From Eledone cirrhosa (Eukaryota), in contig OZ024761.1 in NCBI GenBank assembly GCA_964016885.1, positions 4,650,001-4,714,000 of the forward strand: a stretch of 64,000 nucleotides of DNA. Reading direction: 5' to 3'. Position numbers and translations under genes: made by a program. Below, one piece after another: positions 24,964 through 63,429 of this stretch. Positions within the stretch are counted from its first letter, which is position 1; the number at the start of each line of letters is the position of its first letter. The notes beneath the pieces were generated by a model. That model had not been told where the DNA came from. It made no database searches and saw only the letters and a program-made list of their open reading frames with translations.

Positions 24964-25027
<64 letters not shown>

Positions 25028-25392: not shown

Positions 25393-25533
<141 letters not shown>

Positions 25534-27124
25534 TTTGTTATTTTTATTGATTTATTACTTTAAATCGAGTCAGGCAAACTATATTGTTTTAAATTATTAT
25601 TTTTTCAACCTAGCTAACTTGGGCATTTGCAATTGGAACACATGTATACTTATATATGTGTTCATCTCTCTCATATTCCCTTCTTTGAGCTACTTAATAG
25701 AAAAAGACTATTTTGAGTTTATAACTCAATCTATGATATATATATATATATATATATATAACAAAGGAAATGTGGTAAGGAACCAGATGGCCCATAACGC
25801 ACCAGAGTACTCAATACTTAGGGTAGTAGAGTGGGAAATAGGAAAAAGTATGACCCCGACGCAGAGCTCAAGCCGTTTCGACGGCTATTTCTGGACTCAC
25901 AGAAATAGCCGTCTAAACGGCTTGAGCTCTGCCGTCGGGGTCATACTTTTTTCCTATATATATATATTTATATATATATAGTGAAAAATGGAACGGGAAC
26001 AAAACAGAGAGGCAGTACGAACAAAGGTTTATTAGTTTCACGCTCTTGAGAGTGGGGGGGACGACGACATTTCGGGCATAAGCCCTTCTTCAGGCGAAAA
26101 GTGTGTGGGAAGAGAGTTCCAAGGGTGTGTAGGGGAGTGGGGGTGAGACATTTAGAAAAGAGGGGGTGAGAAGAAACGGTGGAAATGGTACAAATGAAAA
26201 GAAATATGAAAAGAAATATGAAAAAATAATAATAAAAATAAAAATAAACATGAAGATAAACAACTGGTGGAAGGATGTGGGGCATGTAGGGGTGGTGGCG
26301 GGTGGAGTGGGGAGAGGGAGGCGGGGTGTCCGAGCGGGGAGGGCTGAAGGTGGTTTGTGTGTGTAGGTGCACGTGTGTGTGTGTGTGAATGTGAGAGTTG
26401 GGGGAAGAACGGGGTTCCATTTTCAGGAAAAGGTGTGTGTGGGGTGGGGTGTAGGTTGGTGTGTGTGTGCGTGTGTGGATGGGGGAAGGGTCATGGGGTG
26501 GGAGATGGGGGGGGGGGGGGGATTCCGGAGGCTGAGTGTGTAAATATGTGGGGGTACGCACGTGTGTGTGGTGTTTATACTTATTGTGGATGTAGGTGGC
26601 GTGTAAGAATTTTTTTTTATATATATATATATATATATGTAGGAGGTGAGTTTTATTGTAGCACAATGAAGCAATGCAAATATCGGATAAGTAGCACTCA
26701 ACAGTTTATAGGACCGGAGTATAAATAATATAAAATCAAAAGATGGTTAAAAGAGTTCCATGTATTTTATTATGCGCATTTCAAAAACAATGGGATGATA
26801 TTTGCGTTCTCATCAGATAAATTAGGGAAGACAGTGTTTCTCAGTATTAGAATATGAGACAGCGTTTCTCAGTATTAAAGGTTATCTCTCTCTCTCTCAT
26901 TTTCTCCTCTCTCATCCTTCCTTCTTATACTCCTCCTCCGTCATCCTTTTCTTATTAATATATTTTTTTCTTCTATCTATATTTTTTCTTCCTCTTCCTT
27001 ACCTTTTCTTTCCCCCTTTCATTTCTTTTTCCAATCTCATATATCCATCTTATTTAATTTTTCATATGTTGATGTAACACTTCACTGCTCGCAAGTGTTT
27101 TTTAAGCTTCATATCATGTCTCCC

Positions 27125-27195
27125 TATTTTATCTGATGAGAACGCAAATATCATCCCATGATGATATTTCTTTTTGAAATGCGCATAATAAAATA
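27125..27195 (+). ncRNA. Type-I hammerhead ribozyme motif; inverted copy at 26763-26824
   Basis: tattttat-CTGATGA-(aaatatcatc/gatgatattt)-GAAA-tgcgca-TA-ataaaata. Confidence 0.75.
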
Positions 27196-27226
27196 CATGG
27201 AATCCTTTTAAACATCTTTTGCTTTT

Positions 27227-27258
<32 letters not shown>

Positions 27259-27449: not shown

Positions 27450-30400
27450 CATTAGCCCAGAGGCTCATTAGACTAGAGACTAATTAGCCAAGAGACTCAT
27501 CAATTCAGAGATACATTAGACCAGAGATTCATTAGACCAGAGAATAATTAGACCAGAGACTCGTTAGACCAGAGACTCATTAGACCAGAGATACATTAGA
27601 CCAGAGATTCATTAGACCAGAGATTCATTAGACCAGAGACTCATTAGACCAGAGATACATTAGACCAGAGATTCATTAGACCAGAGACTCATTAGACCAG
27701 AGACTAATTAGAGCAGTGACTCATCAGAGAAGAGACTCATTAGACCAGAAACTCATTAGACCAGAGACTCATTAGACCAGAAACTCATTAGACCATAGAT
27801 TCATTAGACCAGACATTCATTAGACCAGATGCTCATTAGACCAGAGACTAATTAGACCAGACACTCATTAGACCAGAGACTCATTAGACCAGAGTCTCAT
27901 TAGAACAGAGATTCATTAGACCAGAGACTAATTAGACCAGAGGCTCATTAGACCAGATATTCATTATACCAGAGACTCATTAGACAATAGACTCATTAGA
28001 CCAGAGTCTCATTAGAACAGAGACTCATTAGACCAGAGAATCATTAGACTAGAGACTCATTATACCAGAGATACATTAGACCAGAGATTCATTAGACCAG
28101 AGACTCATTAGACCAGAGATACATTAGACCAGAGACTAATTACACCAGAGACTCATTAGAACAGAGATTCATTAGACCAGAGACTCATTAGACCAGAGAC
28201 TAATTAGACCAGAGGCTCATTAGACCAGAGATTCATTATACCAGAGACTCATTAGACCAGAGACTCATTAGACCAGAGTCTCATTAGAACAGAGACTCAT
28301 TAGACCAGAGACTCATTAGACCAGAGACTAATTAGACCAGAGGCTCATTAGACCAGAGATTCATTAGACCAGAGACTCATTAGACCAGAGAAAAATTAGA
28401 CCAGAGAATCATTAGACTAGAGACTCATTATACCAGAGATACATTAGACCAGAGATTCATTAGACCAGAGACTCATTAGACCAGAGATACATTAGACCAG
28501 AGACTAATTAGACCAGAGACTCATTAGACCAGAGACTAATTAGACCAGAGGCTCATTAGACCAGAGATTCATTATACCAGAGACTCATTAGACCAGAGAC
28601 TCATTAGACCAGAGTCTCATTAGAACAGAGACTCATTAGACCAGAGGCTCATTAGACCAGAGATTCATTAGACCAGAGACTCATTAGACCAGAGAAACAT
28701 TAGACCAGAGAATCATTAGACTAGAGACTCATTATACCAGAGACTCATTAGACCAGAGACTAATTAGACCAGAGGCTCATTAGACCAGAGATTCATTATA
28801 CCAGAGACTCATTAGACCAGAGTCTCAATCGAACAGAGACTCATTAGACCAGAGACTCATTAGACCAGAGACTAATTAGACCAGAGTCTCATTAGACCAG
28901 AGATTCATTAGACCAGAGACTCATTAGACCAGAGAAACATTAGACCAGAGAATCATTAGACTAGAGAATCATTATACCAGAGATACATTAGACCAGAGAT
29001 TCATTAGACCAGAGACTCATTAGACCAGAGATACATTAGACCAGAGACTAATTAGACCAGAGACTCATTAGACCAGAGACTCATTAGACCAGAGGCTCAT
29101 TAGACCAGAGATTCATTAGATCAGAGGCTCATTAGAACAGACACTAATTAGACGAGAGACTCATTAGACAAGAGACTAATTAGACCAGAAACTAATTAGA
29201 CCAGAGACTAATTAGACCAGAGACTCATTAGACTAGAGTCTCATTAGACGAGAGATTCATTAAACCAGAAACTCATTAGACCAGAGACTCATTAGACCAG
29301 AGACTCATTAGACCAGAGTCTAATTAGACCAGAAACTCATTAAACCAGAGATTCATTAGACCAGAGATTCATTAGACGAGAGGCTCATTAGACCAGAGAA
29401 TAATTAGACCAGAGACTCATTGGACCAAAAACTCATTAGACCAGAGACTAATTAGACCAGAGACTCATTAAACCAGAGATTCATTAGACCAGAGATTCAT
29501 TAGACCAGAGGCTCATTAGACCAGAGACTAATTAAACCAGAGAATTATTAGACCAGAGATTGATTAGACCAGAGATTCATTAGATCAGAGGCTCATTTGA
29601 CCAGATACTAATTAGACCAGGGACTCATTATACCAGAGACTCATTAGACCAGAGTCTCTTTAGAACAGAGATTCATTAGACCAGAGACTAATTTGACAAG
29701 AGATTCATCATTAGACCAGATACATCATTTGACCAGAGATTAATTAGACCAGAGACTGTTTAGATCAGAGACTCAGTAGACCAGAGTCTCATTAGAACAG
29801 AGGCTCATTAGACAAGAGATTCATTAGACCAGAGACTCATTAGACCAGAGATTCATTAGATCAGAGGCTCATTATAACAGACACTAATTAGACGAGAGAC
29901 TCATTAGACAAGAGACTAATTAGACCAGAAACTAATTAGACCAGAGACTAATTAGACCAGAGACTCATTAGACTAGAGACTCATTAGACGAGAGATTCAT
30001 TAAACCAGAAACTCATTAGACCAGAGACTCATTAGACCAGAGACTCATTAGACCAGAGTCTAATTAGACCAGAAACTCATCAAACCAGAGATTCATTAGA
30101 CCAGAGATTCATTAGACGAGAGGCTCATTAGACCAGAGAATAATTAGACCAGAGACTCATTGGACCAAAAACTCATTAGACCAGAGACTAATTAGACCAG
30201 AGACTCATTAAACCAGAGATTCATTAGACCAGAGATTCATTAGACCAGAGGCTCATTAGACCAGAGACTAATTAGACAAGAGACTCCTTAGACCAGAGAC
30301 TAATTAGACCAGAGACTCTTTAGACCAGAGACTCATTAGACAAGATATTCTTTAGACCAGAGACTCATTAGACCAGAGATTCATTAGACCAGAGATTCAT

Positions 30401-33400
30401 TAGACCATAGATTCATTAGACCAGAGATTCATTAGACCAGAGGCTCATTAGAACAGAGACTAATTAGATCAGAGACTCATTAGACAAGAGACTAATTAGA
30501 CCAGAGACTCATTAGACTAGAGACTCATTAGACCAGAGATTCCTTAGACAAGAGATTCATTAGACCAGAGACTCATTAGACCAGATATTCATTAGACCGG
30601 AGGCTCATTAGACCAGAGACTCATTAGACCAGAGACTAATTAGACCAGAGACTCATTAGACCAGAGACTTATTAGACCATAAACTTATTAGACAAGAGAC
30701 TAATTAGACCAGAGACACATTAGACTAAAGACTCATTACACCAGAGATTCATTAGACCAGAAACTCATTAGACCAGAGACTAATTAGACCAGAGATTCAT
30801 TAGACCAGAAACTCATTAGACCGGAGACTAATTAGACCAGAGACTCATTAGACCAGAGATTCATTATACCAGAGACTCATTAGACCAGAGTCTCATTAGA
30901 ACAGAGTCTCATTAGACCAGAGACTCATTAGACCAGAGACTAATTAGACCAGAGTCTCATTAGACCAGAGATTCATTAGACCAGAGACTCATTAGACCAG
31001 AGAAACATTAGACCAGAGAATCATTATACCAGAGATACATTAGACCAGAGATTCATTAGACCAGAGACTCATTAGACCAGAGATACATTAGACCAGAGAC
31101 TAATTAGACCAGAGACTCATTAGACCAGAGACTCATTAGACCAGAGGCTCATTAGACCAGAGATTCATTACACAAGAGGCTCATTAGACCAGAGATTCAT
31201 TTGACCAAAGATTCATTAGACCAGAGCCTCATTAGACAAGAGCCTCATTAGACAAGAGATTCATTAGACCAGGGGTTCATTAGACCAGAGACTCATTAGA
31301 CCAGAGACACAGTAGACCAGAGATTCATTAGACCAGAGGCTCATTACACAAGAGACTCAGTAGACCAGAGATTCATTAGACCAGAGACTCATTAGACCAG
31401 AGACTAATTACACCAGAGATTCATTAGACCAGAGATTCACTAGACCAGAGGTTCATTAGACCAGCGACTCATTAGACCAGAGATTCATTAGACCAGAGAC
31501 TCATTAGACCAGAGATTCATTAGACCAGAGGCTCATTAGAACAGAGATTCATTAGACCAGAGGCTCATTAGACAAAATATTCATTAGACCAGAGACCCAT
31601 TAGACCAGAGATTTATTAGACCAGAGATTCATTAGACCGGAGATTCATTAGACCAGATGCTCATTAGAACAGAGACTAATTAGACCAGAGGCTCATTAGA
31701 CAAAATATTCATTAGACCAGAGACCCATTAGACCAGAGATTCATTAGACTAGAGATTCATTAGACAAGAGATTTATTACACCAGAAACTCATTAGACCAG
31801 AGACTAATTAGACCAGAGATTCATTAGACCAGAGGTTCATGTTACCAGAGGCTCATTAGAACAGAGATTCATTAGACCAGAGGCTCATTAGACAAAATAT
31901 TCATTAGACCAGAGACCCATTAGACCAGAGATTCATTAGACCAGAGATTCATTAGACCGGAGGCTCATTAGACCAGAGACTAATTATACCAGAGACTCAT
32001 TATACCAGAGACTCATTAGACCAGAGACTCATTAGAACAGAGACTCATTAGACTAGAGATTCATTAGACAAGAGATTTATTACACCAGAAACTCATTAGA
32101 CCAGAGACTAATTAGACCAGAGATTCATTAGACCAGAGGTTCATGTTACCAGAGACTCATTAGACCAGAGACTCATTAGACCAGAGTCTCATTAGACCAG
32201 AGATTCATTAGACCAGAGGCTCATTAGACCAGAGACTAATTAGACCAGAGACTCATTAGACCAGAGACTCATTAGACCAGAAATTCATTAGACCAGAGGC
32301 TCATTAGCCCAGAGAGTAATTAGACAAGAGATTCATCATTAGACCAGATACATCATTAGACAAGAGACTCATTAGACCAGAGACTATTTAGACCAGAGAC
32401 TCATTAGACCAGAGACTCATTAGACCATAAACTCATTAGATAAGAGACTAATTAGACCAGAGCCTCATTAGACTAGAGACTCATTAGGCAAGAGATTCAT
32501 TACACCAGAAACTCATTAGACCAGAGACTAATTAGACCAGACATTCATTAGACCAGAGGTTCATTTTACCAGAGATACATTAGACCAGAGACTCATTAGA
32601 CCAGAGTCTCATTAGACCAGAGATTCATTAGACCAGAGGCTCATTAGAACAGAGATTCATTAGACCAGAGGCTCATTAGCCCAGAGAGTAATTAGACACG
32701 AGATTCATCATTAGACCAGATACATCATTAGACCAGATTCATCATTAGACCAGAGACTATTTAGACCAGAGACTCATTAGATCAGAGCCTCATTAGACCA
32801 GAGACTCATTAGGCCAGAGTCTCATTAGAACATAGATTCATTAGACCAGATACTCAATAGACCAGAGACTAATTAGACCAGAGGCTCATTAGACCAGAGA
32901 CTAATTAGACCAGAGACTCGTTAGAACAGAGACTCATTATACCAGAGACTAATTAGACCAATGACTCATCAGACCAGAGACGCATTAGACCAGAGACTCA
33001 TTAGACCAGAGACTAATTAGACCAGAGACTCATTAAACCAGAGATTCATTAGACCAGAGATTCATTAGACCAGAGATTCATTCAACCAGAGATTCATTAG
33101 ACCCGAGGCTCATTAGACCTGAGACTAATTAGACCAGAGACTCATTAGACCAGAGACTCATTAGACCAGAGATTCATTAGACCAGAGGCTCATTAGACCA
33201 GAGACTAATTAAACCAGAGAATTATTAGACCAGAGATTGATTAGACCAGAGATTCATTAGACCAGAGGCTCATTTGACCAGATACTAATTAGACCAGGGA
33301 CTCATTATACCAGAGACTCATTAGACCAGAGTCTCTTTAGAACAGAGATTCATTAGACCAGAGACTAATTTGACAAGAGATTCATCATTAGACCAGATAC

Positions 33401-36400
33401 ATCATTTGACCAGAGATTAATTAGACCAGAGACTGTTTAGATCAGAGACTCATTAGACCAGAGTCTCATTAGAACAGAGGCTCATTAGACAAGAGATTCA
33501 TTAGACCAGAGACTCATTAGACCAGAGATTCATTAGATCAGAGGCTCATTAGAACAGACACTAATTAGACGAGAGACTCATTAGACAAGAGACTAATTAG
33601 ACCAGAAACTAATTAGACCAGAGACTAATTAGACCAGAGACTCATTAGACTAGAGTCTCATTAGACGAGAGATTCATTAAACCAGAAACTCATTAGACCA
33701 GAGACTCATTTGACCAGAGACTCATTAGACCAGAGTCTAATTAGACCAGAAACTCATTAAACCAGAGATTCATTAGACCAGAGATTCATTAGACGAAAGG
33801 CTCATTAGACCAGAGAATAATTAGACCAGAGACTCATTGGACCAAAAACTCATTAGACCAGAGACTAATTAGACCAGAGACTCATTAAACCAGAGATTCA
33901 TTAGACCAGAGATTCATTAGACCAGAGGCTCATTAGACCAGAGACTAATTAAACCAGAGAATTATTAGACCAGAGATTGATTAGACCAGAGATTCATTAG
34001 ACCAGAGGCTCATTTGACCAGATACTAATTAGACCAGGGACTCATTATACCAGAGACTCATTAGACCAGAGTCTTTTTAGAACAGAGATTCATTAGACCA
34101 GAGACTAATTTGACAAGAGATTCATCATTAGACCAGATACATCATTTGACCAGAGATTAATTAGACCAGAGACTGTTTAGATCAGAGACTCATTAGACCA
34201 GAGTCTCATTAGAACAGAGGCTCATTAGACAAGAGATTCATTAGACCAGAGACTCATTAGACCAGAGATTCATTAGATCAGAGGCTCATTATAACAGACA
34301 CTAATTAGACGAGAGACTCATTAGACAAGAGACTAATTAGACCAGAAACTAATTAGACCAGAGACTAATTAGACCAGAGACTCATTAGACTAGAGACTCA
34401 TTAGACGAGAGATTCATTAAACCAGAAACTCATTAGACCAGAGACTCATTAGACCAGAGACTCATTAGACCAGAGTCTAATTAGACCAGAAACTCATCAA
34501 ACCAGAGATTCATTAGACCAGAGATTCATTAGACGAGAGGCTCATTAGACCAGAGAATAATTAGACCAGAGACTCATTGGACCAAAAACTCATTAGACCA
34601 GAGACTAATTAGACCAGAGACTCATTAAACCAGAGATTCATTAGACCAGAGATTCATTAGACCAGAGGCTCATTAGACCAGAGACTAATTAGACAAGAGA
34701 CTCCTTAGACCAGAGACTAATTAGACCAGAGACTCTTTAGACCAGAGACTCATTAGACAAGATATTCTTTAGACCAGAGACTCATTAGACCAGAGATTCA
34801 TTAGACCAGAGATTCATTAGACCATAGATTCATTAGACCAGAGATTCATTAGACCAGAGGCTCATTAGAACAGAGACTAATTAGATCAGAGACTCATTAG
34901 ACAAGAGACTAATTAGACCAGAGACTCATTAGACTAGAGACTCATTAGACCAGAGATTCCTTAGACAAGAGATTCATTAGACCAGAGACTCATTAGACCA
35001 GATATTCATTAGACCGGAGGCTCATTAGACCAGAGACTCATTAGACCAGAGACTAATTAGACCAGAGACTCATTAGACCAGAGACTTATTAGACCATAAA
35101 CTTATTAGACAAGAGACTAATTAGACCAGAGACACATTAGACTAAAGACTCATTACACCAGAGATTCATTAGACCAGAAACTCATTAGACCAGAGACTAA
35201 TTAGACCAGAGATTCATTAGACCAGAAACTCATTAGACCGGAGACTAATTAGACCAGAGACTCATTAGACCAGAGACTAATTAGACAAGGGACTCATTAG
35301 ACCAGAGACTCATTAGACCAGAGACTAATTAGACCAGAGACTCATTAGACCAGAGACTCATTAGGCCAGAGTCTCATTAGACCAGATTCTAATTAGACCA
35401 GAGGTTCATTAGACCAGAGACTCATTAGACCAGAGATTCATTAGACCAGAGATTCATTAGACCAGAGGCTCATTAGATCAGAGACTCATTAGACCAGAGA
35501 CTCATTAGACCAGAGACTAATTAGACCAGAGATTCATTAGACCATAGATTCATTAGACCAGAGACTCATTAGACCAGAGATTCATTAGACCATAGATTCA
35601 TTAGACAAGAGACTCATTAGACCAGAAACTCATTAGATCATAGATTCATTAGACCAGAGATTCATTTGACCAGGGGGTCATTAGACCAGATACTAATTAG
35701 ACGAGGGACTCATTATACCAGAGACTCATTAAACCAGAGTCTCTTTAGAACAGGGATTCATTAGACCAGAGACTAATTTGACAAGAGATTCATCATTAGA
35801 CCAGATACATCATTTGACCAGAGACTAATTAGACCAGAGACTGTTTAGATCAGAGACTCATTAGACCAGAGTCTCATTAGAACAGAGGCTCATTAGACAA
35901 GAGATTCATTAGACCAGAGTCTCATTAGACCAGAGATTCATTAGATCAGAGGCTCATTAGAACAGACACTAATTAGACGAGAGACTCATTAGACAAGAGA
36001 CTAATTAGACCAGAAACTAATGAGACCAGAGACTAATTAGACCAGAGATTCATTAGACCAGAGATTCATTAGACGAGAGGCTCATTAGACCAGAGAATAA
36101 TTAGACCAGAGACTCATTAGACCAAAAACTCATTAGACCAGAGACTAATTAGACCAGAGACTCATTAAACCAGAGATTCATTAGACCAGAGATTCATTTG
36201 ACCAGAGGCTCATTAGACCAGAGACTAATTAGACAAGAGACTCCTTAGACCAGAGACTAATTAGACCAGAGACTCTTTAGACCAGAGACTCATTAGACAA
36301 GATATTCTTTAGACCAGAGACTCATTAGACCAGAGATTCATTAGACCAGAGATTCATTAGACCATAGATTCATTAGACCAGAGATTCATTAGACCAGAGG

Positions 36401-39192
36401 CTCATTAGAACAGAGACTAATTAGATCAGAGACTCATTAGACAAGAGACTAATTAGACCAGAGACTTATTAGACTAGAGACTCATTAGACCAGAGATTCC
36501 TTAGACAAGAGTTTCATTAGACCAGAGACTCATTAGACCAGATATTCATTAGACCGGAGGCTCATTAGACCAGAGACTCATTAGACCAGAGACTAATTAG
36601 ACCAGAGACTCATTAGACCAGAGACTTATTAGACCATAAACTTATTAGACAAGAGACTAATTAGACCAGAGACTCATTAGACTAAAGACTCATTAGACCA
36701 GAGATTCATTAGACCAGAAACTCATTAGACCAGAGACTAATTAGACCAGAGATTCATTAGACCAGAAACTCATTAGACCGGAGACTAATTAGACCAGAGA
36801 CTCATTAGACCAGAGACTAATTAGACAAGGGACTCATTAGACCAGAGACTCATTAGACCAGAGACTCACTAGACCAGAGACTAATTAGACCAGAGATTCA
36901 TTAGACCATAGATTCATTAGACCAGAGACTCATTAGACCAGAGATTCATTAGACCATAGATTCATTAGACAAGAGACTCATTAGACCAGAAACTCATTAG
37001 ATCATAGATTCATTAGACCAGAGATTCATTTGACCAGGGGGTCATTAGACCAGATACTAATTAGACGAGGGACTCATTATACCAGAGACTCATTAAACCA
37101 GAGTCTCTTTAGAACAGGGATTCATTAGACCAGAGACTAATTTGACAAGAGATTCATCATTAGACCAGATACATCATTTGACCAGAGACTAATTAGACCA
37201 GAGACTGTTTAGATCAGAGACTCATTAGACCAGAGTCTCATTAGAACAGAGGCTCATTAGACAAGAGATTCATTAGACCAGAGTCTCATTAGACCAGAGA
37301 TTCATTAGATCAGAGGCTCATTAGAACAGACACTAATTAGACGAGAGACTCATTAGACAAGAGACTAATTAGACCAGAAACTAATGAGACCAGAGACTAA
37401 TTAGACCAGAGATTCATTAGACCAGAGATTCATTAGACGAGAGGCTCATTAGACCAGAGAATAATTAGACCAGAGACTCATTAGACCAAAAACTCATTAG
37501 ACCAGAGACTAATTAGACCAGAGACTCATTAAACCAGAGATTCATTAGACCAGAGATTCATTTGACCAGAGGCTCATTAGACCAGAGACTAATTAGACAA
37601 GAGACTCCTTAGACCAGAGACTAATTAGACCAGAGACTCTTTAGACCAGAGACTCATTAGACAAGATATTCTTTAGACCAGAGACTCATTAGACCAGAGA
37701 TTCATTAGACCAGAGATTCATTAGACCATAGATTCATTAGACCAGAGATTCATTAGACCAGAGGCTCATTAGAACAGAGACTAATTAGATCAGAGACTCA
37801 TTAGACAAGAGACTAATTAGACCAGAGACTTATTAGACTAGAGACTCATTAGACCAGAGATTCCTTAGACAAGAGTTTCATTAGACCAGAGACTCATTAG
37901 ACCAGATATTCATTAGACCGGAGGCTCATTAGACCAGAGACTCATTAGACCAGAGACTAATTAGACCAGAGACTCATTAGACCAGAGACTTATTAGACCA
38001 TAAACTTATTAGACAAGAGACTAATTAGACCAGAGACTCATTAGACTAAAGACTCATTAGACCAGAGATTCATTAGACCAGAAACTCATTAGACCAGAGA
38101 CTAATTAGACCAGAGATTCATTAGACCAGAAACTCATTAGACCGGAGACTAATTAGACCAGAGACTCATTAGACCAGAGACTAATTAGACAAGGGACTCA
38201 TTAGACCAGAGACTCATTAGACCAGAGACTCACTAGACCAGAGACTAATTAGACCAGAGACTCATTAGACCAGAGACTCATTAGGCCAGAGTCTCATTAG
38301 ACCAGAGTCTAATTAGACCAGAGGCTCATTAACCAGAGACTCATTAGACCAGAGATTCATTAGACCAGAGATTCATTAGACCAGAGGCTCATTAGACCAG
38401 AGACTCATTAGACCAGAGGCTCATTAGACCAGAGACTCATTAGACCAGAGACTAATTAGACCAGAGATTCATTAGACCATAGATTCATTAGACCAGAGAC
38501 TCATTAGACCAGATATTCATTAGACCATAGATTTATTAGACAAGAGACTCATTAGACCAGAAACTCATTAGACCATAGATTCATTAGACCAGAGATTCAT
38601 TTGACCAGGGGGTCATTAGACCAGATACTAATTAGACCAGAGACTCATTAGACCAGAGACTCATTAGACCAGAGCCTCCTTAGACCAGAGATTCATTAGA
38701 CCAGAGATTTATTAGACCAGAGGCTCATTAGACCAGAGACTAATTATACCAGATAATCATTATACCAGAGACTCATTAGACCAGAGCTACCTTAGACCAG
38801 AGATTCATTAGACCAGAGATTCATTAGATCAGAGGCTCATTAGACCAGAGACTAATTAGACCAGAGATTCATTAGAACAGAGGCTCATTAGACCAGAGAA
38901 TAATTAGACCAGAGACTCATTAGATCAGAGTCTCATTAGACCAGAGATTCATTAGACTAAAGGCTTATTAGACCAGAGACTCATTAGACCAGAGACTGTG
39001 TAGACCAGAGACTAATTAGACCAGAGATTCATTAGACCAGAAACTCATTAGACCAGATATTCATTAGACTAGAGGCTCATTAGACCACTGACTCATTAGA
39101 CCAGAGACTCAGTAGACCAGAGACTCAGCAGACCAGAGATTCATTAGACCAGAAACTCATTAGACTAGAAATTTATTAGACCAGAGACTAAT
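27450..39192. repeat. 11.7-kb satellite of a 16-bp unit (cattagaccagagact) with higher-order duplications
   Basis: Continuous tandem array, roughly 730 units by length; variant blocks recur. Confidence 0.98.
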
Positions 39193-44952: not shown

Positions 44953-45114
44953 ATTTTTTTAAAGTGAGGAAAGGATTTGCATTAAGTCCAGAGTTAACGC
45001 CATAGCTATAAAGTGTGACCCCAACAAAATCGACCGAACGCAACAGCTTTAGATACAACAAAATTATGATATATACATATATATATATATGTGTATCTAT
45101 ATATGCATATATAT

Positions 45115-45340
45115 AAAATAAAGTTAAATAAAAAGTCAAATGTTTAAAATTTAGCTTTGTTTATTGCTGCTATATATATTTCAGTGACAGCCATCTTTGG
45201 CTGTGACCTCTTCAGACAGTCTGAATTAGTGTGGTATAGACAAGTACATATGTTGTTGAGGTGTATAATATTGTCAATACTCTGATATGCCCAGTTCCTG
45301 GTTGGGTTGTTATTTCACTGAGGAACTGGAATCATATGAA
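45115..45340 (-). mobile_element. PLE-derived repeat with hammerhead (45166-45220)
   Basis: Reverse-complement homolog of 25170-25398. Confidence 0.8.
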
Positions 45341-46299: not shown

Positions 46300-46301
<2 letters not shown>

Positions 46302-47215
46302 TGGTTACACAACAGTTAGTTCACCATACCGAGAACAATTGTTTCACCTTAGCGGATCCTCAGCTCGTAATGGACATGGTTATACGGAACAGGAAGGACA
46401 ACCGTACAAACGCGCATGCGCAGAAACGATCACTTTACAGGCAATACTAAAATGCGTGCGAGAGGTGTAAGGGAGATAACTGCGAAAGTACGAACAGTTT
46501 CCAATTGATAAGAAAATTAGGATGTTGTTGCAATTCAATCCGGAGCTTTGTAGTTAGGTAAGAGGTGTTTCGAGACGTGCGGACAACGTGTGAAGAATTC
46601 ATTTCTCGCGTTTAGGCAATCGCTATTGCATAATCTCTTTAGAATATTTATTCGTTCATCAATACATAGTCCACACGACGGATTTCCCCTTGCATATGGC
46701 TTGGACTTAGTGATGGCTTTCCATTGAATGGAGTAGTCTATACTTGAGTCCTTGAGGGACCATACGTGGCTCGCGAGTTTCGTGGATGAACGTCTGTCCG
46801 GGTACCTAAAGGTCGACTGGTGGTTCAGGAAGCGTTCCTTAAATCGGCCCTCCGCCATGCCCACATAGGATTTGACCTCCTGTGATTGATTTGGTCGGTT
46901 GGAAGTGACCACAGCTTCATAAACTACAGCGGGTGTGTTGCATTGCTGTTGAAGGGGACAAGCTTCGGGCTTACGGCAGGAGCACCCTGGTGGGGTGTTG
47001 CTCTTAGGGCTGTTGGTGATGTGGGCCTTCATGTTCTTAGCGCAGGAGTATCCTAGTTTTACTTTGTGTCGGTTAAAGATGGAGCGGTATTTATGACCTA
47101 TGGGAAAGTGTCTATCTAAGAGGGCTAGCAATTTTTTGCCTACATTGGTTTTAACGTTGAGTGAGAAGGGAGGAGAGAACCAGATAGTTTGTCTATTGTT
47201 ACGCTTGATCATCAT
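46300..47215 (-). mobile_element. Penelope-like element 3' part with open GIY-YIG frame (46535-47215)
   Basis: IWFSPPFS, CSC...CPL...C, VVYEA..SYVGMAE..FKER..NH, CGLCIDE, LNARNE..CPH. Confidence 0.93.
46330..46367 (-). ncRNA. Minimal hammerhead in the PLE 3' terminal repeat
   Basis: cgag-CTGAGGA-...-GAAAC-aatt-GTT-ctcg, about 170 bp downstream of the GIY-YIG stop codon. Confidence 0.7.
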
Positions 47216-47339: not shown

Positions 47340-48249
47340 GAGGAGGGCCATCAGTTGACAATAAATGTAAGCTATGTAAAACAAAGATTGAAGATGTTAG
47401 CCACATTGTTGCCAACTGTGAAAGTATGTCGTTTCGCTACTACCTCCCTATGAGACACAATGTGATAGCTAGAACCATCTAGAGCGCAATTAGGAAAACA
47501 AAATTAAAAACAAATGAGGAGGAATATATTGAGACAGATGGCACTAAAGAATACCGATGGAACCTGAAAATAAAAACAGCCACCAAATTAAAGCACAACC
47601 GGCCTGATATTGTTGTTTGGGACCACACATTGAAAACGTGTTCTGTTGTGGAGATCAGCTGCCCACTTGATGTCAACACTGTAAGAAACATACACGAGAA
47701 GGAGGACATCTACGGACGATTGATGAGGAGTTTGCAGATCCAGTATCCAAGATACACCTTCAGCTTCATACCCATCATTATTCGAGCTACAGGTTATATA
47801 CCAACTCGCTTGGATCAAAATATAACTGAACTTAGATTCGTGGACAAAGATCGCAGCTACCTAATTCCTAGACTACAAATGGCTGCGATAGCTGGTACCT
47901 TCAAAATTTGTAAAACGTTCTTGCGATTCAAGGGATGACAATTTCTTTTCTTTTACAACCTTGCCACCAGGAAGGTGGCCGGTCAAAAATGTACTCGAAA
48001 TTAAGAGAAAGAGAAATACATACATACATAGTTCACATGTACAGATACAAAGCATATGCACATGTACACATATAACTAAAAACATACACCTCCACACATA
48101 CAATAACAACCATACCTGCACACATACGCATGCATACAGACATGCATACCTAGTTGATGTTGTGTAAATTCCAATGAGAGTCTTGTAACTATGTTAGAAA
48201 CCGATTCTTTCTCTATTAGCAAACCTTTATAACATTATAAAACCAGAAC
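47340..48249 (+). mobile_element. 5'-truncated R4/Dong-like LINE (CCHC, RLE, 3' UTR)
   Basis: CKLC..EDVSHIVANC, YLPMRH, HNRPDIVVWD, VVEISCP; ends in (ATAC)n. Confidence 0.88.
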
Positions 48250-48282
48250 ATACATACATACATACATACATACATACATACA

Positions 48283-48314
<32 letters not shown>

Positions 48315-48319
48315 CTATA

Positions 48320-48525
48320 CAGTCAACGCGATCAGTCGCATATTTTGGCGTGGGAGACTATTTATTAAATTTAAGATGAATACTATCTCCGACAGTACAC
48401 GTACAGATACAAATCTACCTAGTTGATGTTGTGTAAATTCCAATGAGAGAGTCTTGTGTCTATGCTAGAAACCGACTCTCTCTCTCTATTGGTAAAACTT
48501 TATGAAATTAACAAACCAGAAGAAC
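48320..48525 (+). mobile_element. Short internally deleted derivative of the R4/Dong-like LINE
   Basis: 48320-48397 matches the LINE 5' end (48557-48634) and is fused to the LINE 3' terminus. Confidence 0.75.
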
Positions 48526-48556
48526 ATACGTACATACATATATACATACATTCCAT

Positions 48557-51500
48557 CAGTCAACGCGATGAGTCGCATATTTTGGCGTGGGAGACTATTT
48601 ATTAAATTTAAGATGAATACTATCTCCGACAGTAATGCCACAACTACAGCCAGGTTGAATAACTGGTTATTCTTCTAACTATCCCTTCTGAAGACACCTT
48701 TTATTCGAATTCGTAGAGATATCCGACTAAATACATAATTCCTTTTACAAGGATTTGCTACAAACAGCATGGCTGAACACAACATCAACAAGAAAATTAA
48801 GGAAGTATCGAAGACAAATAACAAAGAAGGTAATCAAACTTTATTCAGTTGTAGCTACAGAAGAAACCGAAATTATAAATCACATTTCTCTTGGAGTTGC
48901 GAACTTAATAATGATTTATTTAATTGTTATAAAATGGCAAAAAACAATCCCTCCATTGGCTATATGAATAGAATGAAGCTACACTGGGACGAAATGCACC
49001 CAGAGCTAAATTATTTCACAGCGAAACAATTACGCCAACAAGCGACGTTTGTTGAACGTAAAAATAACATAAATATTATTAATTGTAAGTCCCCCACAAC
49101 AAACATGGAATCAACAACACGTGCTACAGATCGCCATGCTACTAGACTTCCTAGCAGCCAGGTCGAACAGCGCCTTGAAACAACTATGCCTGTAAGAAAC
49201 TTGACACCACCTGTACCATCTAAGTCTACATCGAATGCTGGGGAAAACACTATCGATAATAATAATAATCGAAGAAATAATAATAATAATCGAATAAATG
49301 TGACACCACGTATACCACCCGAGTCTACCTCGACTGTTGTGGAAAATACTATCGATAATGATAATCAAAAGTATAAACAATTGAAAATTTCCCTCAACGA
49401 AATCTTCCAGAGAGAAATTAACTCATGTATAAATATCTCTCTTGCTGAACGTGTTAAAATGACAATGGTGAATAAAAAACCAAATAATGAAATACTACGT
49501 GTTATTGACGAAATAGGGGATGAATATTTACGACGGATAAAAACCCCAACATTTTGGCAAATCAACGCCTGTTTATATGCCTTAGCAATGACAGTGAAGC
49601 ATTATCTTGGTGATAGCAGAGATATTAACAAGAACAAAACACCACCAAAAATACCATCATATATAACTAAAATAGAAAAAAAGAGTGCTGACCTACGAAA
49701 AAACATAGGACATGTGACAATGCTCCTTACATGCAAACAAACACAAAAAACCTCACTCCTCACCAACAAAGAGTGAAAAATAAAATAGAGATGATGTTTG
49801 GTAACAGTAGAACCAGAACTCTCCAATATAAGCTGATCTCCAATATAGGCTGTCTTCTTCTTGGGCTACTATCCTAAGGTTAAAGACAGAGAGGGAGGAC
49901 TCTATTTTCACTGATAAAATAAAATATTGCAGGGGTATATTTCAGGGGGACAGTCTCTCTGTGATATTGTTCATCTTGTCATTAAACCCCTTGTCCTTTC
50001 TGCTTAAGAAATGTGAGGGATACATCATTGGCTCAGAGGAGGACAGAAATACGAAACTAACCCATAACTTCTTTGTGGACGATCTGAAACTCTATGGCAA
50101 GAACATGGATGGGATGAAGAAAAATCTTGACCTGGTTACAACGTTCTCAAAGGATATAGGAATGGAGTTTGGCCAAGATAAATGCTCATACATGACTGTA
50201 AAGCGGAGAAAAACAACAACCCAGTCTAGCAACATTGTCATCAATGGTCTAACTGTTTCACCGATATCTGATGAGGACTGCTACAGATACCTGGGGATAG
50301 ATGAGAACATATCCTATAATGGTATCTGTAATAAAGAACGCGTAACCAGGGAATACTACACCCGATTAAGAAAGATCTGGTCATCGGAACTCTCTGCGCA
50401 AAACAAAACAGTGGCTCACAATGTGTTTGCTGTGCCTGTCCTAACACCAACGTTTGGGATACTCAATTGGACGATAGACGAAATCTGAGCAGTTGATTTT
50501 GGAACTCTAAAAATACTGAACAACACCGGAAACTTCCACATCAACAGTGACATAAACCGCCTTTACTTGAAACGTAAGCAGGGAGGCAGAGGCCTAACAT
50601 CAGTCCAGACAACATTTGAATGTCGCATCATATCTCTCCGACAACATCTACGAACCTCGAAGCGTAGGAGCCCGCTTCTCGAGCAAGTCTATCTGCATGA
50701 AACAGATAAGATCATGAGAGTTGGGAAGGAACTCCTTGAGAGATATTCCCTGTGTGATAATCAAAAACTCACACCCAGGGATGTCGCTCAGCAGTATCGC
50801 AGTGAATCCATGGATGAAAAACTGCATGCCTATCAGCAAAAAATCATGCATGGATATGTTGCCAGGAAGCTCCAGAGTGAGAGTAATATAGATAAGGAAG
50901 GTAGTCTATCTTGGACCAACAACCGCTATATTGACTCCCACTTTGAAGGATATGCTTTTGCAATCGAAGAACAGGAGATTAGCACGAAATACCTGATTCA
51001 CAAAAGAGATAGGGATGCAGGAAAAACACCTAGATGTGATAACAAGTGCAAACTCTGCAGAACTAACATCGAGGATATCACCCATGACATCAGCAGCTGC
51101 CCAAAGATTGTCATCGCGGTACTATCTACCTATGAGGCATGATGTAGTGGCCAAAACACTGTACAATGCAGTTCGTAAAAAAGATAACCCCGATAATAAA
51201 CACATTAAAAGCTACAATAATGTGGAAGACATCCATGTACATAATATGAAAGAGTACTGGTGGAATGTTCCAGTGAAAACCCCAATAAAATGCAGGCATA
51301 ACAGACCAGATATTATGATATGGGACAGGGAGAAGAAAGCATGCACAGTAGTGGAAATTAGCTGCCCAACAGATGCCAATATAATATCAAAGATTAGTGA
51401 AAAGGAGAATATTTATGCAGAACTTATGAGAAATCTGCAGATACTCCACCCTGATTACACCTTCAGATTTATGCCTGTGATTATTAGGGCACTGGGATAC

Positions 51501-51866
51501 GTTAGTAACTGCCTCAATACAAATCTTGAGAAGCTAAGCTTCACAGGAACGGAAAGAACACAACTAGTTACGAAATTACAAGTACAATCCATTAATCCAA
51601 CAGTAAAAATATGTAAAACATTCCAAAAATTTTGCATCTAATAACTGCATATACACATGTACAGATACAAAGCATATACACATGCACACATACAACTCAA
51701 AACATACACATCCACACATACAATAACATCCATATCTACACATGCATGCATACATACATATCTACCTAGTTGATGTTGTGTAAATTCCAATGAGAGAGTC
51801 TTGTGTCTATGTTAGAAACCGACTCTCTCTCGGTAAAACTTTGTAAAATTATAAAACCAGAAGAAC
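48557..51866 (+). mobile_element. R4/Dong-like RLE-clade LINE, internally deleted and frameshifted
   Basis: GIFQGDSLS, FVDDLKLY, YRYLGI, GGRGL, CKLC, RHD, RPDIMIWD..VVEISCP; both ends present; (ATAC)n flanks. Confidence 0.92.
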
Positions 51867-52479: not shown

Positions 52480-55400
52480 GGACATCTGTTGGTATTATCG
52501 GTACTCTAGGACATCTGTTGGTATTATCGGTACTCTAGGACATCTGTTGGTATTATCGGTACTCTAGGACATCTGTTGGTATTATCGGTATTCTAGGACA
52601 TCTGTTGGTATTATCGGTACTCTAGGACATCTGTTGGTATTATAGGTACTCTAGGACATCTGTTGGTATTATCGGTACTCTAGGACATCTGTTGGTATTA
52701 TAGGTATTCTAGGACATCTGTTGGTATTATAGGTATTCTATGACATATGTTGGTATTATAGGTACTCTAGGACATCTGTTGGTATTATAGGTACTCTAGG
52801 ACATCTGTTGGTATTATCAGTACTCTAGAACATCTGTTGGTATTATTGGTATTCTAGGACATCTGTTGGTATTATCGGTACTCTAGGACATCTGTTGGTA
52901 TTATCTGTATTCTAGGATATCTGTTGGTATTATCGGTACTTTAGGATTTCTGTTGGTATTATCTGTATTCTAGGACATCTGTTGGTATTATCGGTATTCT
53001 AGGACATCTGTTGGTATTATCTGTATTCTAGGACATCTGTTGATATTATCATTACTCTAGGACATCTGTTGGTATTATCGGTACTCTAGGACATCTGTTG
53101 GTATTATCGGTACTCTAGGACATCTGTTGGTATTATCGGTATTCTAGGACATCTGTTGGTATTATCGGTACTCTAGGACATCTGTTGGTATTATAGGTAC
53201 TCTAGGACATCTGTTGGTATTATCTGTATTCTAGGACATCTGTTGGTATTATCGGTATTCTAGGACATCTGTTGGTATTATCGGTTCTCTAAGACATCTG
53301 TTGGTATTATCGGTATTCTAGGACATCTGTTGGTATTATCGGTACTCTAGGACATCTGTTGGTATTATCGGTACTCTAGGACATCTGTTGGTATTATAGG
53401 TACTCTAGGACATCTGTTGGTATTATCTGTATTCTAGGACATCTGTTGGTATTATCGGTATTCTAGGACATCTGTTGGTATTATCGGTTCTCTAAGACAT
53501 CTGTTGGTATTATCGGTATTCTAGGACATCTGTTGGTATTATCGGTACTCTAGGACATCTGTTGGTATTATCGGTACTCTAGGACATCTGTTGGTATTAT
53601 CGGTACTCTAGGACATCTGTTGGTATTATCGGTACTCTAGGACATCTGTTGGTATTATCGGTATTCTAGGACATCTGTTGATATTATCATTACTCTAGGA
53701 CATCTGTTGGTATTATCTGTATTGTAGGACATCTGTTGGTATTATCGGTATTCTAGGACATCTGTTGATATTATCATTACTCTAGGACATCTGTTGGTAT
53801 TATCGGTACTCTAGGACATCTGTTGGTATTATCGGTATTCTAGGACATCTGTTGGTATTATCGGTACTCTAGGACATCTGTTGGTATTATAGGTACTCTA
53901 GGACATCTGTTGGTATTATCTGTATTCTAGGACATCTGTTGGTATTATCGGTATTCTAGGACATCTGTTGGTATTATCGGTTCTCTAAGACATCTGTTGG
54001 TATTATCGGTATTCTAGGACATCTGTTGGTATTATCGGTACTCTAGGACATCTGTTGGTATTATCGGTACTCTAGGACATCTGTTGGTATTATAGGTACT
54101 CTAGGACATCTGTTGGTATTATCTGTATTCTAGGACATCTGTTGGTATTATCGGTATTCTAGGACATCTGTTGGTATTATCGGTTCTCTAAGACATCTGT
54201 TGGTATTATCGGTATTCTAGGACATCTGTTGGTATTATCGGTACTCTAGGACATCTGTTGGTATTATCGGTACTCTAGGACATCTGTTGGTATTATCGGT
54301 ACTCTAGGACATCTGTTGGTATTATCGGTACTCTAGGACATCTGTTGGTATTATCGGTACTCTAGGACATCTGTTGGTATTATCGGTATTCTAGGACATC
54401 TGTTGATATTATCATTACTCTAGGACATCTGTTGGTATTATCTGTATTCTAGGACATCTGTTGGTATTATCGGTATTCTAGGACATCTGTTGATATTATC
54501 ATTACTCTAGGACATCTGTTGGTATTATCGGTACTCTAGGACATCTGTTGGTATTATCGGTATTCTAGGACATCTGTTGGTATTATCGGTACTCTAGGAC
54601 ATCTGTTGGTATTATAGGTACTCTAGGACATCTGTTGGTATTATCTGTATTCTAGGACATCTGTTGGTATTATCGGTATTCTAGGACATCTGTTGGTATT
54701 ATCGGTTCTCTAAGACATCTGTTGGTATTATCGGTATTCTAGGACATCTGTTGGTATTATCGGTACTCTAGGACATCTGTTGGTATTATCGGTACTCTAG
54801 GACATCTGTTGGTATTATAGGTACTCTAGGACATCTGTTGGTATTATCTGTATTCTAGGACATCTGTTGGTATTATCGGTATTCTAGGACATCTGTTGGT
54901 ATTATCGGTTCTCTAAGACATCTGTTGGTATTATCGGTATTCTAGGACATCTGTTGGTATTATCGGTACTCTAGGACATCTGTTGGTATTATCGGTACTC
55001 TAGGACATCTGTTGGTATTATCGGTACTCTAGGACATCTGTTGGTATTATCGGTACTCTAGGACATCTGTTGGTATTATCGGTATTCTAGGACATCTGTT
55101 GATATTATCATTACTCTAGGACATCTGTTGGTATTATCTGTATTCTAGGACATCTGTTGGTATTATCGGTATTCTAGGACATCTGTTGATATTATCATTA
55201 CTCTAGGACATCTGTTGGTATTATCGGTACTCTAGGACATCTGTTGGTATTATCGGTACTCTAGGACATCTGTTGGTATTATCGGTATTCTAGGACATCT
55301 GTTGATATTATCATTACTCTAGGACATCTGTTGGTATTATCTGTATTCTAGGACATCTGTTGGTATTATCGGTATTCTAGGACATCTGTTGATATTATCA

Positions 55401-56048
55401 TTACTCTAGGACATCTGTTGGTATTATCGGTACTCTAGGACATCTGTTGGTATTATCGGTACTCTAGGACATCTGTTGGTATTATCGGTATTCTAGGACA
55501 TCTGTTGATATTATCATTACTCTAGGACATCTGTTGGTATTATCTGTATTCTAGGACATCTGTTGGTATTATCGGTATTCTAGGACATCTGTTGATATTA
55601 TCATTACTCTAGGACATCTGTTGGTATTATCGGTACTCTAGGACATCTGTTGGTATTATCGGTATTCTAGGACATCTGTTGATATTATCATTACTCTAGG
55701 ACATCTGTTGGTATTATCTGTATTCTAGGACATCTGTTGGTATTATCATTACTCTCGGACATCTGTTGGTATTATCGGTACTCTAGGACATCTGTTGGTA
55801 TTATCGGTATTCTAGGACATCTGTTGATATTATCATTACTCTAGGACATCTGTTGGTATTATCGGTACTCTAGGACATCTGTTGGTATTATCGGTATTCT
55901 AGGACATCTGTTGATATTATCATTACTCTAGGACATCTGTTGGTATTATCGGTACTCTAGGACATCTGTTGGTATTATCGATACTCTAGCACATCTGTTG
56001 GTATTATAGGTATTCTAGAACATCTGTTGGTATTATCGATACTCTAGG
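52480..56048. repeat. 29-bp satellite (ggacatctgttggtattatcggtactcta), ~120 copies
   Basis: Direct tandem array. Confidence 0.98.
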
Positions 56049-56860: not shown

Positions 56861-57049
56861 TTACGACAGCTAGATCATCAGAACTACTTCTCATCTAGCT
56901 GTCGTAACGGCTGGAGCTCAGCCGTCGGGGTCCTGACTCTTTTCCTATATATATATATATATATATATATATAACGAAGGAAAAGTGGTAAGGAACCAGG
57001 TGGACCATAACGCACCAAAGTACTCAATACTTGAGGTAGTAGAGTGGGT

Positions 57050-57093
<44 letters not shown>

Positions 57094-60289: not shown

Positions 60290-61115
60290 ATATTGTTATA
60301 CTTTGGGAGGGTCATGTTGCCAATAAGAAACACACGCACCAGGTGCTTTCACTTCAATTTATTATATATTTATAAATTTATAAATTTACAAATCTACAAA
60401 CTTATAAATTTCTGGTTGGTTGGTTGGTTCCACAACCAGATAGTTGTTTATATATAGTCATAGTCCTTTCGTCACACACTCTGTGACCTCTTCAGTGACT
60501 GGGGATTCCTTTCTTTGTTTCTGTGCCTTTCCTTTCTTCTATCCTACACCATTTTGTTTCTGTGTGTGTGTTGTGTGCTCAGTTTGCGCATGCGCCACAT
60601 CCGGGCGTCTGTGTGTGTTTGTGTTCATTTATCTATTTGTTTATTTATTTATTTATTTATTGTTGGTTGGTTGTTTGTTCTATGTGTGTGTGTGTTTTCA
60701 TTTTGTCCTTAATTGTAAGTTGTGATGTTGCTGTTCCACTCATATTTTCTATTTAATTTGGTTGTAATTCTTTTATGCTTACTGTCTCTGTAATTTGCCT
60801 AAACATTGCATCTTTTCTGTGTGTGGATTCTATTTTTATTTCTATGTTCTCTAATCTACCCCTGTGTTCTATCTTAGCAAGTTGGTAGAGCACAGATGAT
60901 TCTTTATTATCTTGAAGGTCTCGCCAGTGTTCATTGCCAGAGTGTGTGACTATATATAAACAACTATCTGGTTGTGGAACCAACCAACCAACCAGAAATT
61001 TATAAGTTTGTAGATTTGTAAATTTATAAATTTATAAATATATAATAAATTGAAGTGAAAGCAACTGGTGCGTGTGTTTCTTATTGGCAACATGAGCCTC
61101 CCAAAGTATAACAAT
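60290..61115 (-). mobile_element. 5'-truncated PLE with GIY-YIG tail, hammerhead (60456-60500) and inverted terminal repeat; related copy at 22140-22300
   Basis: EHWRDL..SVLY..EH...RQITETVSI...P; agtca-CTGAAGA-g-gtcaca/tgtgac-GAAA-ggac-TA-tgact; 60935-61115 inverts 60290-60480. Confidence 0.85.
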
Positions 61116-61149
61116 ATATATATATACATATATATATATACATATATAT

Positions 61150-61200
<51 letters not shown>

Positions 61201-61247
61201 CATATACACATATATATATATACGCACATATATATATATATACATAC

Positions 61248-61296
<49 letters not shown>

Positions 61297-62161
61297 CACA
61301 TATATATATACACATATATATACATATATATATATACTTATATATATATACATATATATATATACATTTATACATATATATCTATATATATATATATATA
61401 CATATATACATATATATACATATATACATATATATATATATACATATATATATACATATATATATATATACATACACATACATACATATATATGTATATA
61501 CACACATATATATATACACATATATATATACATATATATTTATATATATATATATATATATACATATATATCCATATATATACATATATATACACATATA
61601 CATACACATATATATATACATATATATTTATATATATACATATATATACATACATACATATACATATATCTATATATATACATATATATATACATATATA
61701 TATATTTATATATATACATATATACATATATATATATTTATATATATACATATATACATATATATATATTTATATATATACATATACATATACATATATA
61801 TATACATATATATATATACATACACACATATATATACACATATACATATACATATATATCCATATACATATATATACATATACACATATACACACATACA
61901 TATATATATATATATATACATATACACATATACATATATATATATATACATATACATACACATACATATATATACACATACATATATATATATATATATA
62001 TACATATATACATATATATACATATACACACATACAGATAGATATACATATATATATATACATATATACATATATATATACACATATACATATATATACA
62101 TATACATATATATATATACATATACACATACATACATATATACACATATACATATATACAC

Positions 62162-62194
<33 letters not shown>

Positions 62195-62223
62195 TACACG
62201 TATATATATACACATACACACAC

Positions 62224-62257
<34 letters not shown>

Positions 62258-62405
62258 GTATAATATATATAATATATATATATATACATATATATATAGA
62301 TACATATATATACATATACATATATACATACACATATATACATATATATACACATATATATATTTATATATACATACATATACATATACATACATATACA
62401 TATAC

Positions 62406-62456
<51 letters not shown>

Positions 62457-62585
62457 CATATATACATATATATATATATATACATATACATATACATACA
62501 TATATATACATATATATATATACATATATATATATACATATATATATATATACATATACATATATATATATATACATACATATAC

Positions 62586-62618
<33 letters not shown>

Positions 62619-62627
62619 CATATATAT
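61115..62627. repeat. TA/CA-rich microsatellite
   Basis: Direct reading. Confidence 0.97.
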
Positions 62628-63310
62628 ATTGGAATAAATGCTCTGAAATAGCGATATATATGTGAATATAGACATAGAATATTCGAAAATATTCTGTATG
62701 TTTATAATAAACATTTTGAAGACCTAATCGCTATAGAATAGAATACGTCACGTATTACAATTAGATTCTCGATAAAAGCAAGGGAAGTAATCTACGCGTT
62801 TCATTCTCGTAAGAAATCATCAGGACTACATATCCAGTGCTTTTATCGAGAATGACACAGCTAGAGACTTATAGAATACTTAGCTGTGTACAGGAACTGG
62901 TTTGAAAGAGCGGTTTCTATTCTATAGCGATTAGGTCTTCAAAATGTTTATTATAAACATACAGAATATTTTCGAATATTCTATGTCTATATTCACATAT
63001 ATATCGCTATTTCAGAGCATTTATTCCAATTTCTAATTTCTGCCGGACCGGCAACCGCTCTTTCAAACCAGTTCCTGTACACAGCTAAGTATTCTATAAG
63101 TCTCTAGCTGTGTCATTCTCGATAAAAGCACTGGATATGTAGTCCTGATGATTTCTTACGAGAATGAAACGCGTAGATTACTTCCCTTGCTTTTATCGAG
63201 AATCTAATTGTAATACGTGACGTATTCTATTCTATAGCGATTAGGTCTTCAAAATGTTTATTATAAACATACAGAATATTTTCGAATATTCTATGTCTAT
63301 ATTCACATAT
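62628..63310. mobile_element. Non-coding ~310-nt hammerhead element: partial tandem plus inverted copy
   Basis: 62628-62915 is inverted relative to 62916-63310; hammerheads at 63139-63181 (+) and 62787-62829 (-). Confidence 0.88.
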
Positions 63311-63334
63311 ATATATATACATATATATATATAC

Positions 63335-63365
<31 letters not shown>

Positions 63366-63429
63366 CATATATATACATATATATATATATACATACATAT
63401 ATATATATACATATATATATACCAGTGCA

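Follow-up and report, generated by a model that had tools for sequence, protein, structure and literature searches.

The feature under study occupies positions 62628-63314 of the 64,000-nt stretch of DNA that was analysed (hereafter the window) and forms a non-repetitive island within a TA/CA microsatellite. A repeat scan places the left flank, which is the target site and in which a target duplication is unreadable, at 61114-62629 and the right flank at 63307-63421. Within the island, exact matching delimits two arms. The direct arm (62915-63314, + strand, 400 nt) has a period of 310 nt, with 62915-63004 repeated exactly at 63225-63314 (90 nt), and comprises 1.29 units (400/310); its 3' end lies at 63304-63314, the final 10 letters being ambiguous with the microsatellite. 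One unit, in a phase chosen arbitrarily, spans 62915-63224 (+). The inverted arm (62628-62915, - strand, 288 nt) is a partial unit that lacks 63031-63052. Its segment 62654-62915 corresponds without mismatch to the reverse complement of 63053-63314 (262 nt), as does its segment 62628-62743 to that of 62915-63030 (116 nt); the arms are 100% identical over the 288 nt of the inverted arm and join at 62915, a single base common to both. The 3' end of the inverted arm overshoots that of the direct arm by a 26-nt tail (62628-62653, -, equivalent to 63005-63030), which is present on this end alone and runs into the TA microsatellite. Its 5' end falls at the 3' foot of a G+C-rich hairpin at 63041-63053 (+). 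Folding and contig ends further delineate a 3' module at 62920-63030 (+), made up of a long stem with an inner hairpin and containing the two insertion end points, one close to 63004 and the other close to 63030-63035. The original prediction, that sequence at 62916 recurs near 63226 in about 1.3 tandem copies, is preceded by an inverted copy identical by eye and sits in TA-rich microsatellite, is confirmed on each of these points, with the refinement that the inverted copy is 288 nt long and not a whole unit.

Each arm carries a single type-I hammerhead motif, found by motif scan and folding at 63139-63181 (+) and, as an identical mirror, at 62787-62829 (-). In the direct arm the core consists of CUGAUGA (63145-63151) and GAAA (63166-63169), and the GUA triplet lies at 63173-63175, with cleavage predicted after A63175; the 3' ends of the direct arm are 129-139 nt beyond this predicted cut. 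Helix I has six pairs (63139-63144 with 63176-63181) and is extended, across a 3x1 internal loop 1 (63136-63138 opposite 63182), by a middle stem of three pairs and an outer stem of 16 bp (63115-63130 with 63188-63203), such that the extended helix (63115-63203, +) encloses the hammerhead in the outer hairpin that had been proposed. Helix II has four pairs (63153-63156 with 63161-63164) over a U-U at 63152/63165 and is capped by loop 2 (63157-63160). Helix III has two pairs and includes the palindrome 63169-63174, for which self-pairing was computed at -7.5 kcal/mol. The 101 nt from 63110 to 63210 fold with z = -5.94 (0 of 200 shuffles equally stable), and the 310-nt unit also folds stably, both as a linear molecule (z = -4.22) and as a circle (z = -3.9, 0 of 100 shuffles equally stable). 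A strict type-I scan, which demanded the core, NUH and a helix I of at least 5 pairs, returned seven sites in the 64-kb window against a mean of 0.25 and a maximum of 3 in 40 block shuffles. An Rfam search of the window gave no hammerhead match at the gathering score, and none of its 12 matches at E values up to 10, all driven by microsatellites, was to a hammerhead.

The type-I assignment and the palindromic stem III of the original prediction are upheld by the motif scan; the label "minimal" is not. Minimal PLE (Penelope-like element) hammerheads, as described in the available text of PMC4209133, have a helix II of 7-8 bp, a helix I of 4-5 bp, a scant or missing helix III and a G10.1-C11.1 pair. 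The hammerhead of the 310-nt unit differs from these in having a helix I of 6 bp plus its long extension, a helix II of 4-5 bp and a helix III of 2 bp, and the usual G10.1-C11.1 pair is absent, with U-U or A-U at 10.1/11.1. The helix lengths and the missing pair rule out the minimal label, and by the same definitions the sequence is that of a canonical metazoan type-I hammerhead. It resembles the hammerheads of PMC4209133 in other respects, namely the type-I form, the palindromic helix III region, the predicted action as a dimer and the occurrence of opposite-strand pairs a few hundred bases apart. Hammerheads in both orientations had also been claimed, and this holds for the locus, by way of the inverted arm, but not for the unit, which has a single polarity: its antisense strand contains no hammerhead by the strict type-I scan and no other ribozyme class by Rfam. 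Viroid-like ribozymes in both polarities were considered and rejected, the minus-strand motif being the mirror within the inverted arm. Because there is one hammerhead per strand, the locus itself could neither release a monomer nor form an intramolecular dimer.

The distribution of the unit in public sequencing data is informative as to its nature. Contigs or reads of 4 of the 24 listed public runs (3 of the 20 unit-bearing runs) were compared to 62915-63224. Run X8 contains one contig of 340 nt, equal to the 310-nt unit plus a 30-nt end overlap and thus a closed cycle, and run X9 contains one of 331 nt with a 21-nt end overlap; both bridge the junction 63030|63031 with at least 31 letters on each side. 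The Logan paper treats a contig as circular when it shows such an end overlap, and a cyclic contig of this kind may equally represent a circle, a tandem array or a collapsed multicopy family. In run X1, 564 contigs lie on the unit, 336 of them at 99+% identity, 132 at 95-99% and 96 at 90-95%, and three runs of the same sample contain 0.87-0.94 of the sampled words. Among the loose ends listed for X1 (6 of 22), at least nine contigs exit into TA runs after 63004 and at least one after 63035, matching the two insertion ends of the window locus, and at least two exit after 63061 into other sequence; none of those listed enters at 63031. Summed contig depth was rejected as unreliable, both as a measure of copy number and as a truncation profile along the unit. 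The unit itself has a G+C content of 34.5% (below 50%), has no LTR and is non-coding: its longest ATG-led ORF is 30 codons, tblastn gave no hit below E 0.27 to the PLE proteins P0001-P0003, and the reverse transcriptase (RT) and GIY-YIG endonuclease ORF of an autonomous PLE is not found in it. The closed contigs, the abundance in X1 and the lack of an ORF indicate that this is a young, abundant, non-coding and multi-copy family with an intrinsic unit of 310 nt. The proposal of a young non-autonomous unit of about 310 nt is thereby borne out, and neither of two outcomes that would have spoken against it was seen, namely a single genomic copy (there are 564 X1 contigs with several distinct exits into TA runs) or a unit that is always the terminal repeat of a coding PLE.

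Variation within the family is concentrated in one part of the hammerhead. Only three sites of the unit vary at 5% or more in X1 (63152, 63157 and 63160), and all three fall within the 14-nt helix II/loop 2 stretch, for which the naive chance is 7e-5, a figure to be read with the possible linkage of the sites in mind; the core, helix I and helix III have no variant at this level. At 63152, A is present in 23% and closes an A-U pair. At 63157, A is present in 99.6%, and the T of the window copy accounts for only 0.4% of the X1 depth; at 63160, A is present in 74%. The majority letters at 63157 and 63160 give loop 2 the purine...A form, which PMC2632901 (available text) reports for 22 of 27 natural hammerheads and which the window copy does not have. 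Of four letter combinations folded by computation, those of the window copy, of X9 and of the majority at each site put helix II into an inactive pairing with the core GAAA at a probability of 0.82-0.84, and only that of X8 forms helix II (0.91); the energies used disregard tertiary contacts. On this modelling the hammerhead of the window copy looks weakened. The locus is probably inert, a dead end: each strand has only one hammerhead, loop 2 does not carry the letters of most family members, and in a read-through transcript 262 bp of pairing would form between the arms.

By structure the unit may be classed as a non-LTR retrozyme. It shares with the animal non-LTR retrozymes of PMC7229834 and bioRxiv 10.64898/2026.07.22.740005, as far as their available text describes them, a non-coding tandem unit of 150-450 bp, a type-I hammerhead, a G+C content below 50%, the lack of an LTR, a stable predicted circle and co-occurrence with PLEs, and on this likeness it represents a new sequence family within a known class. 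Axolotl HHR_Amex2 likewise has a U-U at the foot of helix II (PMC7229834), an axolotl retrozyme with this U-U being reported there to cleave better as a dimer. The window locus differs from non-LTR retrozymes in having 1.29 units and one hammerhead per strand, and so fails the test of "two complete units" for active copies in bioRxiv 10.64898/2026.07.22.740005. Two or more consecutive hammerhead-bearing units are not present at this locus; the X8 and X9 cycles imply that the unit junction recurs, whatever the length of any array. The locus differs further in its inversion, its tail and its TA targeting: in the available text of the retrozyme literature, no description of an inversion and tail on a retrozyme insertion was found, nor was TA targeting seen.

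These latter features are marks of PLE-type integration: a copy truncated at its 5' end lies inverted beside the direct arm, only one end has a tail, and the target is TA. PLE insertions have been described as partial tandems accompanied by a neighbouring inverted copy with a truncated 5' end, as biased towards microsatellites and as bearing a tail of 30-40 bp, often on just one of the ends (PMC8557442); the 26-nt tail of the window locus is shorter. A close likeness is to the insertions of endonuclease-positive PLEs, those of the Hydra clade in particular (PMC8557442, PMC11167929, available text), which share the partial tandem, the adjacent inverted 5'-truncated copy, the one-sided tail, the AT-rich or (TA)n target and a hammerhead upstream of the 3' end, and which differ in that the unit has no RT or GIY-YIG ORF, a period of 310 nt versus about 3 kb and a tail of 26 nt versus 30-40. 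The Chlamys elements, for example MRC1 (PMC8557442), are likewise short non-autonomous PLE-type units with head-to-tail copies, but belong to green algae, target (CA)n or (C)n and are mostly without a canonical hammerhead. A biochemical basis for such a scar is offered by PMC11167929 (in part), which shows cleavage of AT-rich DNA on both strands by a PLE protein, with cDNA starting at two adjacent internal sites and the tail corresponding to the interval between them. By analogy with that study, the 3' module at 62920-63030 is likely to be the recognition site of a PLE enzyme.

The arms also carry information as to the template. Both have the rare T at 63157, so a single template or a single source locus gave rise to the two. 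In addition, each arm continues across the predicted cut site and the direct arm exceeds one unit in length, so the template was either a circle or an uncut multimer and not a cut linear monomer; between the first two, we lean slightly towards a circle. The reading preferred here, to which we assign a probability of roughly 0.7, is that the locus is a very recent insertion of a 310-nt non-LTR retrozyme family into a TA microsatellite, likely made by the reverse transcriptase-endonuclease of an autonomous PLE. Under this reading, tandem source loci would be transcribed, the hammerhead would cut out monomers, likely aided by the pairing of two palindromic helix III segments, and a host ligase would circularise them. 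A PLE protein would then bind the structured 3' module and nick both strands of a TA run, and cDNA would start, once for each arm, at sites separated by about 26 nt. One cDNA would have run for 400 nt and the other stalled at the hairpin after 288 nt, with the two subsequently joined; the stop of the inverted arm at the foot of hairpin 63041-63053 is plausibly such an RT stall.

The involvement of a PLE reverse transcriptase, as originally suggested, is thus favoured by the inversion, the one-sided tail and the TA target, but the helper is inferred by type only. In the available text of PMC7229834 the return of retrozymes to DNA is still treated as a hypothesis for which PLEs are "a strong candidate", and in that of bioRxiv 10.64898/2026.07.22.740005 the insertion mechanism "remains to be elucidated"; both take shared hammerheads, co-occurrence and phylogeny as grounds for mobilisation by PLEs. 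The window locus is of interest in this regard for the footprint of a PLE enzyme (two starts about 26 nt apart, the inversion and the TA target) on a unit that has no ORF. A young family with natural variants of loop 2 and helix II and a small conserved 3' module would be a handy test case for the circle-template model.

Two remnants of coding PLEs are present elsewhere in the window. The first (46538-47215, -, within 46300-47215) is the 3' end of a coding PLE, with an endonuclease bearing Hydra-type motifs, a 3' UTR and then a TA run; the 46300-47215 stretch (-) includes a hammerhead-like core at 46331-46363 and is 39-41% identical to P0001-P0003. The second (22946-24097, +) is frameshifted, retains RT and endonuclease parts and shares 31% identity with the first across 134 residues. 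Both resemble the RT and endonuclease proteins P0001-P0003, and the motifs CxCx5C, CxxC and CxH can be read by eye in both; these are motifs of the Hydra clade, which bears hammerheads and targets (TA)n (PMC8557442, in part). The assignment derives from motifs read by eye and from homology, as Pfam gave no GIY-YIG call on the remnants or the three homologues and a PDB search was blank. Comparison of the unit with the two remnants gave best E values of 0.18 and 0.37, neither of them significant, and the remnants were rejected as the direct parent of the unit because they share no sequence with it. The helper can for this reason be described by type only, by analogy most likely a TA-targeting PLE of Hydra type, and comparison with the two window remnants found no autonomous PLE partner with the 3' module of the unit. 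The host would be an animal with a genome rich in microsatellites, probably an invertebrate living in water.

An older relative lies at 22381-22686 (+), where sequence comparison revealed an inverted and a direct arm in a TA run, with a tail on the inverted arm only. It shares only the 3' module with the 310-nt unit (77% over 82 nt, and 91% over 32 nt at the tail) and has a different, decayed hammerhead-like core at 22501-22539 (-). All 14 of the proposed pairs of the 3' module are kept, one of them changed on both sides; covariation across the module, with two informative sequences per pair, was not significant against shuffles (247 of 500).

The alternative that survives best, although we consider it unlikely, dispenses with circular RNA: the unit would be a PLE-derived short tandem repeat that moves via linear read-through multimers, with the hammerhead as an ancestral pLTR passenger. 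An uncut multimer would explain arms that cross the cut site equally well, and most of the letter combinations misfold in computation. Hammerhead cleavage is also unnecessary for PLE insertion in vitro (PMC11167929, in part), and of the predicted frog retrozymes in the available text of bioRxiv 10.64898/2026.07.22.740005, eight of nine were without cleavage and one cleaved. This view is countered by the lack of variants at 5% or more in the core, helix I and helix III, by the fit of the family-majority loop 2 to a tertiary-contact motif (PMC2632901, in part) and by the stable fold of the unit as a circle. Moreover, comparable units of coral, mussel and axolotl give circles (PMC7229834, in part).

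A more far-reaching interpretation, and one that we regard as very improbable, is that the element is transmissible or was transferred recently and has stayed almost the same across many unrelated species. It draws on the presence of a near-identical unit under 18 organism codes: in 20 runs from 17 studies (2020-2025), 0.65-0.94 of 31 sampled words are present, a share that corresponds to a divergence of about 1% or less, and X8 and X9 have different letter combinations. The organism codes may, however, be those of close relatives, and outside organism A the runs X8 and X9 contain a single contig apiece, of low depth (34.2 and 9.63), which is what trace DNA of a very high-copy repeat would give. 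Two further runs of the X18 sample contain 0.00 of the words and another sample of organism B has no match in 12,836,656 raw reads, such blanks being no proof of absence; raw Hi-C reads of X23, which are not counted as a test, also had no match to the unit. Exact-pattern scans of viral contigs, metagenome contigs and prokaryote genomes gave no match, part of the viral and metagenome scans being handicapped by patterns that included the rare T at 63157, and no RNA run is among the unit-bearing runs listed. The blank follow-up checks and the single low-depth contigs outside organism A make cross-contamination or close kinship likelier than horizontal transfer. One of the unit-bearing runs dates from 2020 and predates those of organism A, which indicates that some of the unit-bearing runs have another source. 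It is similarly improbable that a 310-nt hammerhead circle is now spreading in a viroid-like manner among many animal species and being fixed by resident Penelope-type enzymes, with the 18 codes as its footprint. If true, cross-organism transfer would matter far more than the insertion described here; present evidence points the other way.

From the window alone, in which the junction 63030|63031 occurs once and is not spanned by the inverted arm, whose tail ends at 63030, the tandem might have arisen by the joining of truncated PLE ends. That there is no independent element, but three 5'-truncated end pieces of a long coding PLE joined as a partial tandem and an inversion with an accidental 310-nt period, is considered very improbable. 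It is suggested by the coincidence of this junction with the end of the inverted-arm tail, by the attribution of opposite-strand hammerhead pairs 100-700 bp apart to truncated PLEs (PMC4209133, in part) and by the at least two contigs that diverge after 63061 among the X1 loose ends listed (6 of 22). Against it, X8 and X9 assemble through 63030|63031 and along no other path, and the loop-2 letters of these two runs match neither the window copy nor one another; none of the loose ends listed lies before 63031, and the unit is without an ORF.

Several further elements of the window deserve mention. Another young inverted insertion, with arms 98.8% identical over 171 nt, is located at 60290-61117; it has its own type-I hammerhead motif at 60495 (-) and related pieces at 22165-22302. 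An inverted pair at 26720-27238 has type-I hammerheads at 26816 (-) and 27133 (+) with a palindromic helix III and a long helix II. Three copies (10732-11024, 25172-25400 and 45111-45339) that are 92-96% alike and end in TA runs make up a further hammerhead-bearing family. In a short fold-back insertion at 21964-22106 the arms join exactly where a hammerhead core begins on its 5' side, and the helix II region there resembles that of the 310-nt unit, U-U base included, with 86% identity across 28 nt. At 2126-2159 (-) there is a lone type-I hammerhead motif that has a longer helix III and a helix I of 8 bp. A family of short copies that start at TA runs, several of them with inverted partners, occurs at 15712-15917, 17393-17583, 24824-25167, 25761-25973 and 56903-57053 and has no hammerhead by the strict scan. 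A broken non-LTR retrotransposon occupies 47483-51641 (+), with an RT domain (PF00078, E 5e-11) followed by an apparent restriction-type endonuclease domain, as judged by eye. Finally, minisatellite arrays of a 16-nt unit (732 copies) and a 29-nt unit (123 copies) are found at 27450-39189 and 52480-56048.
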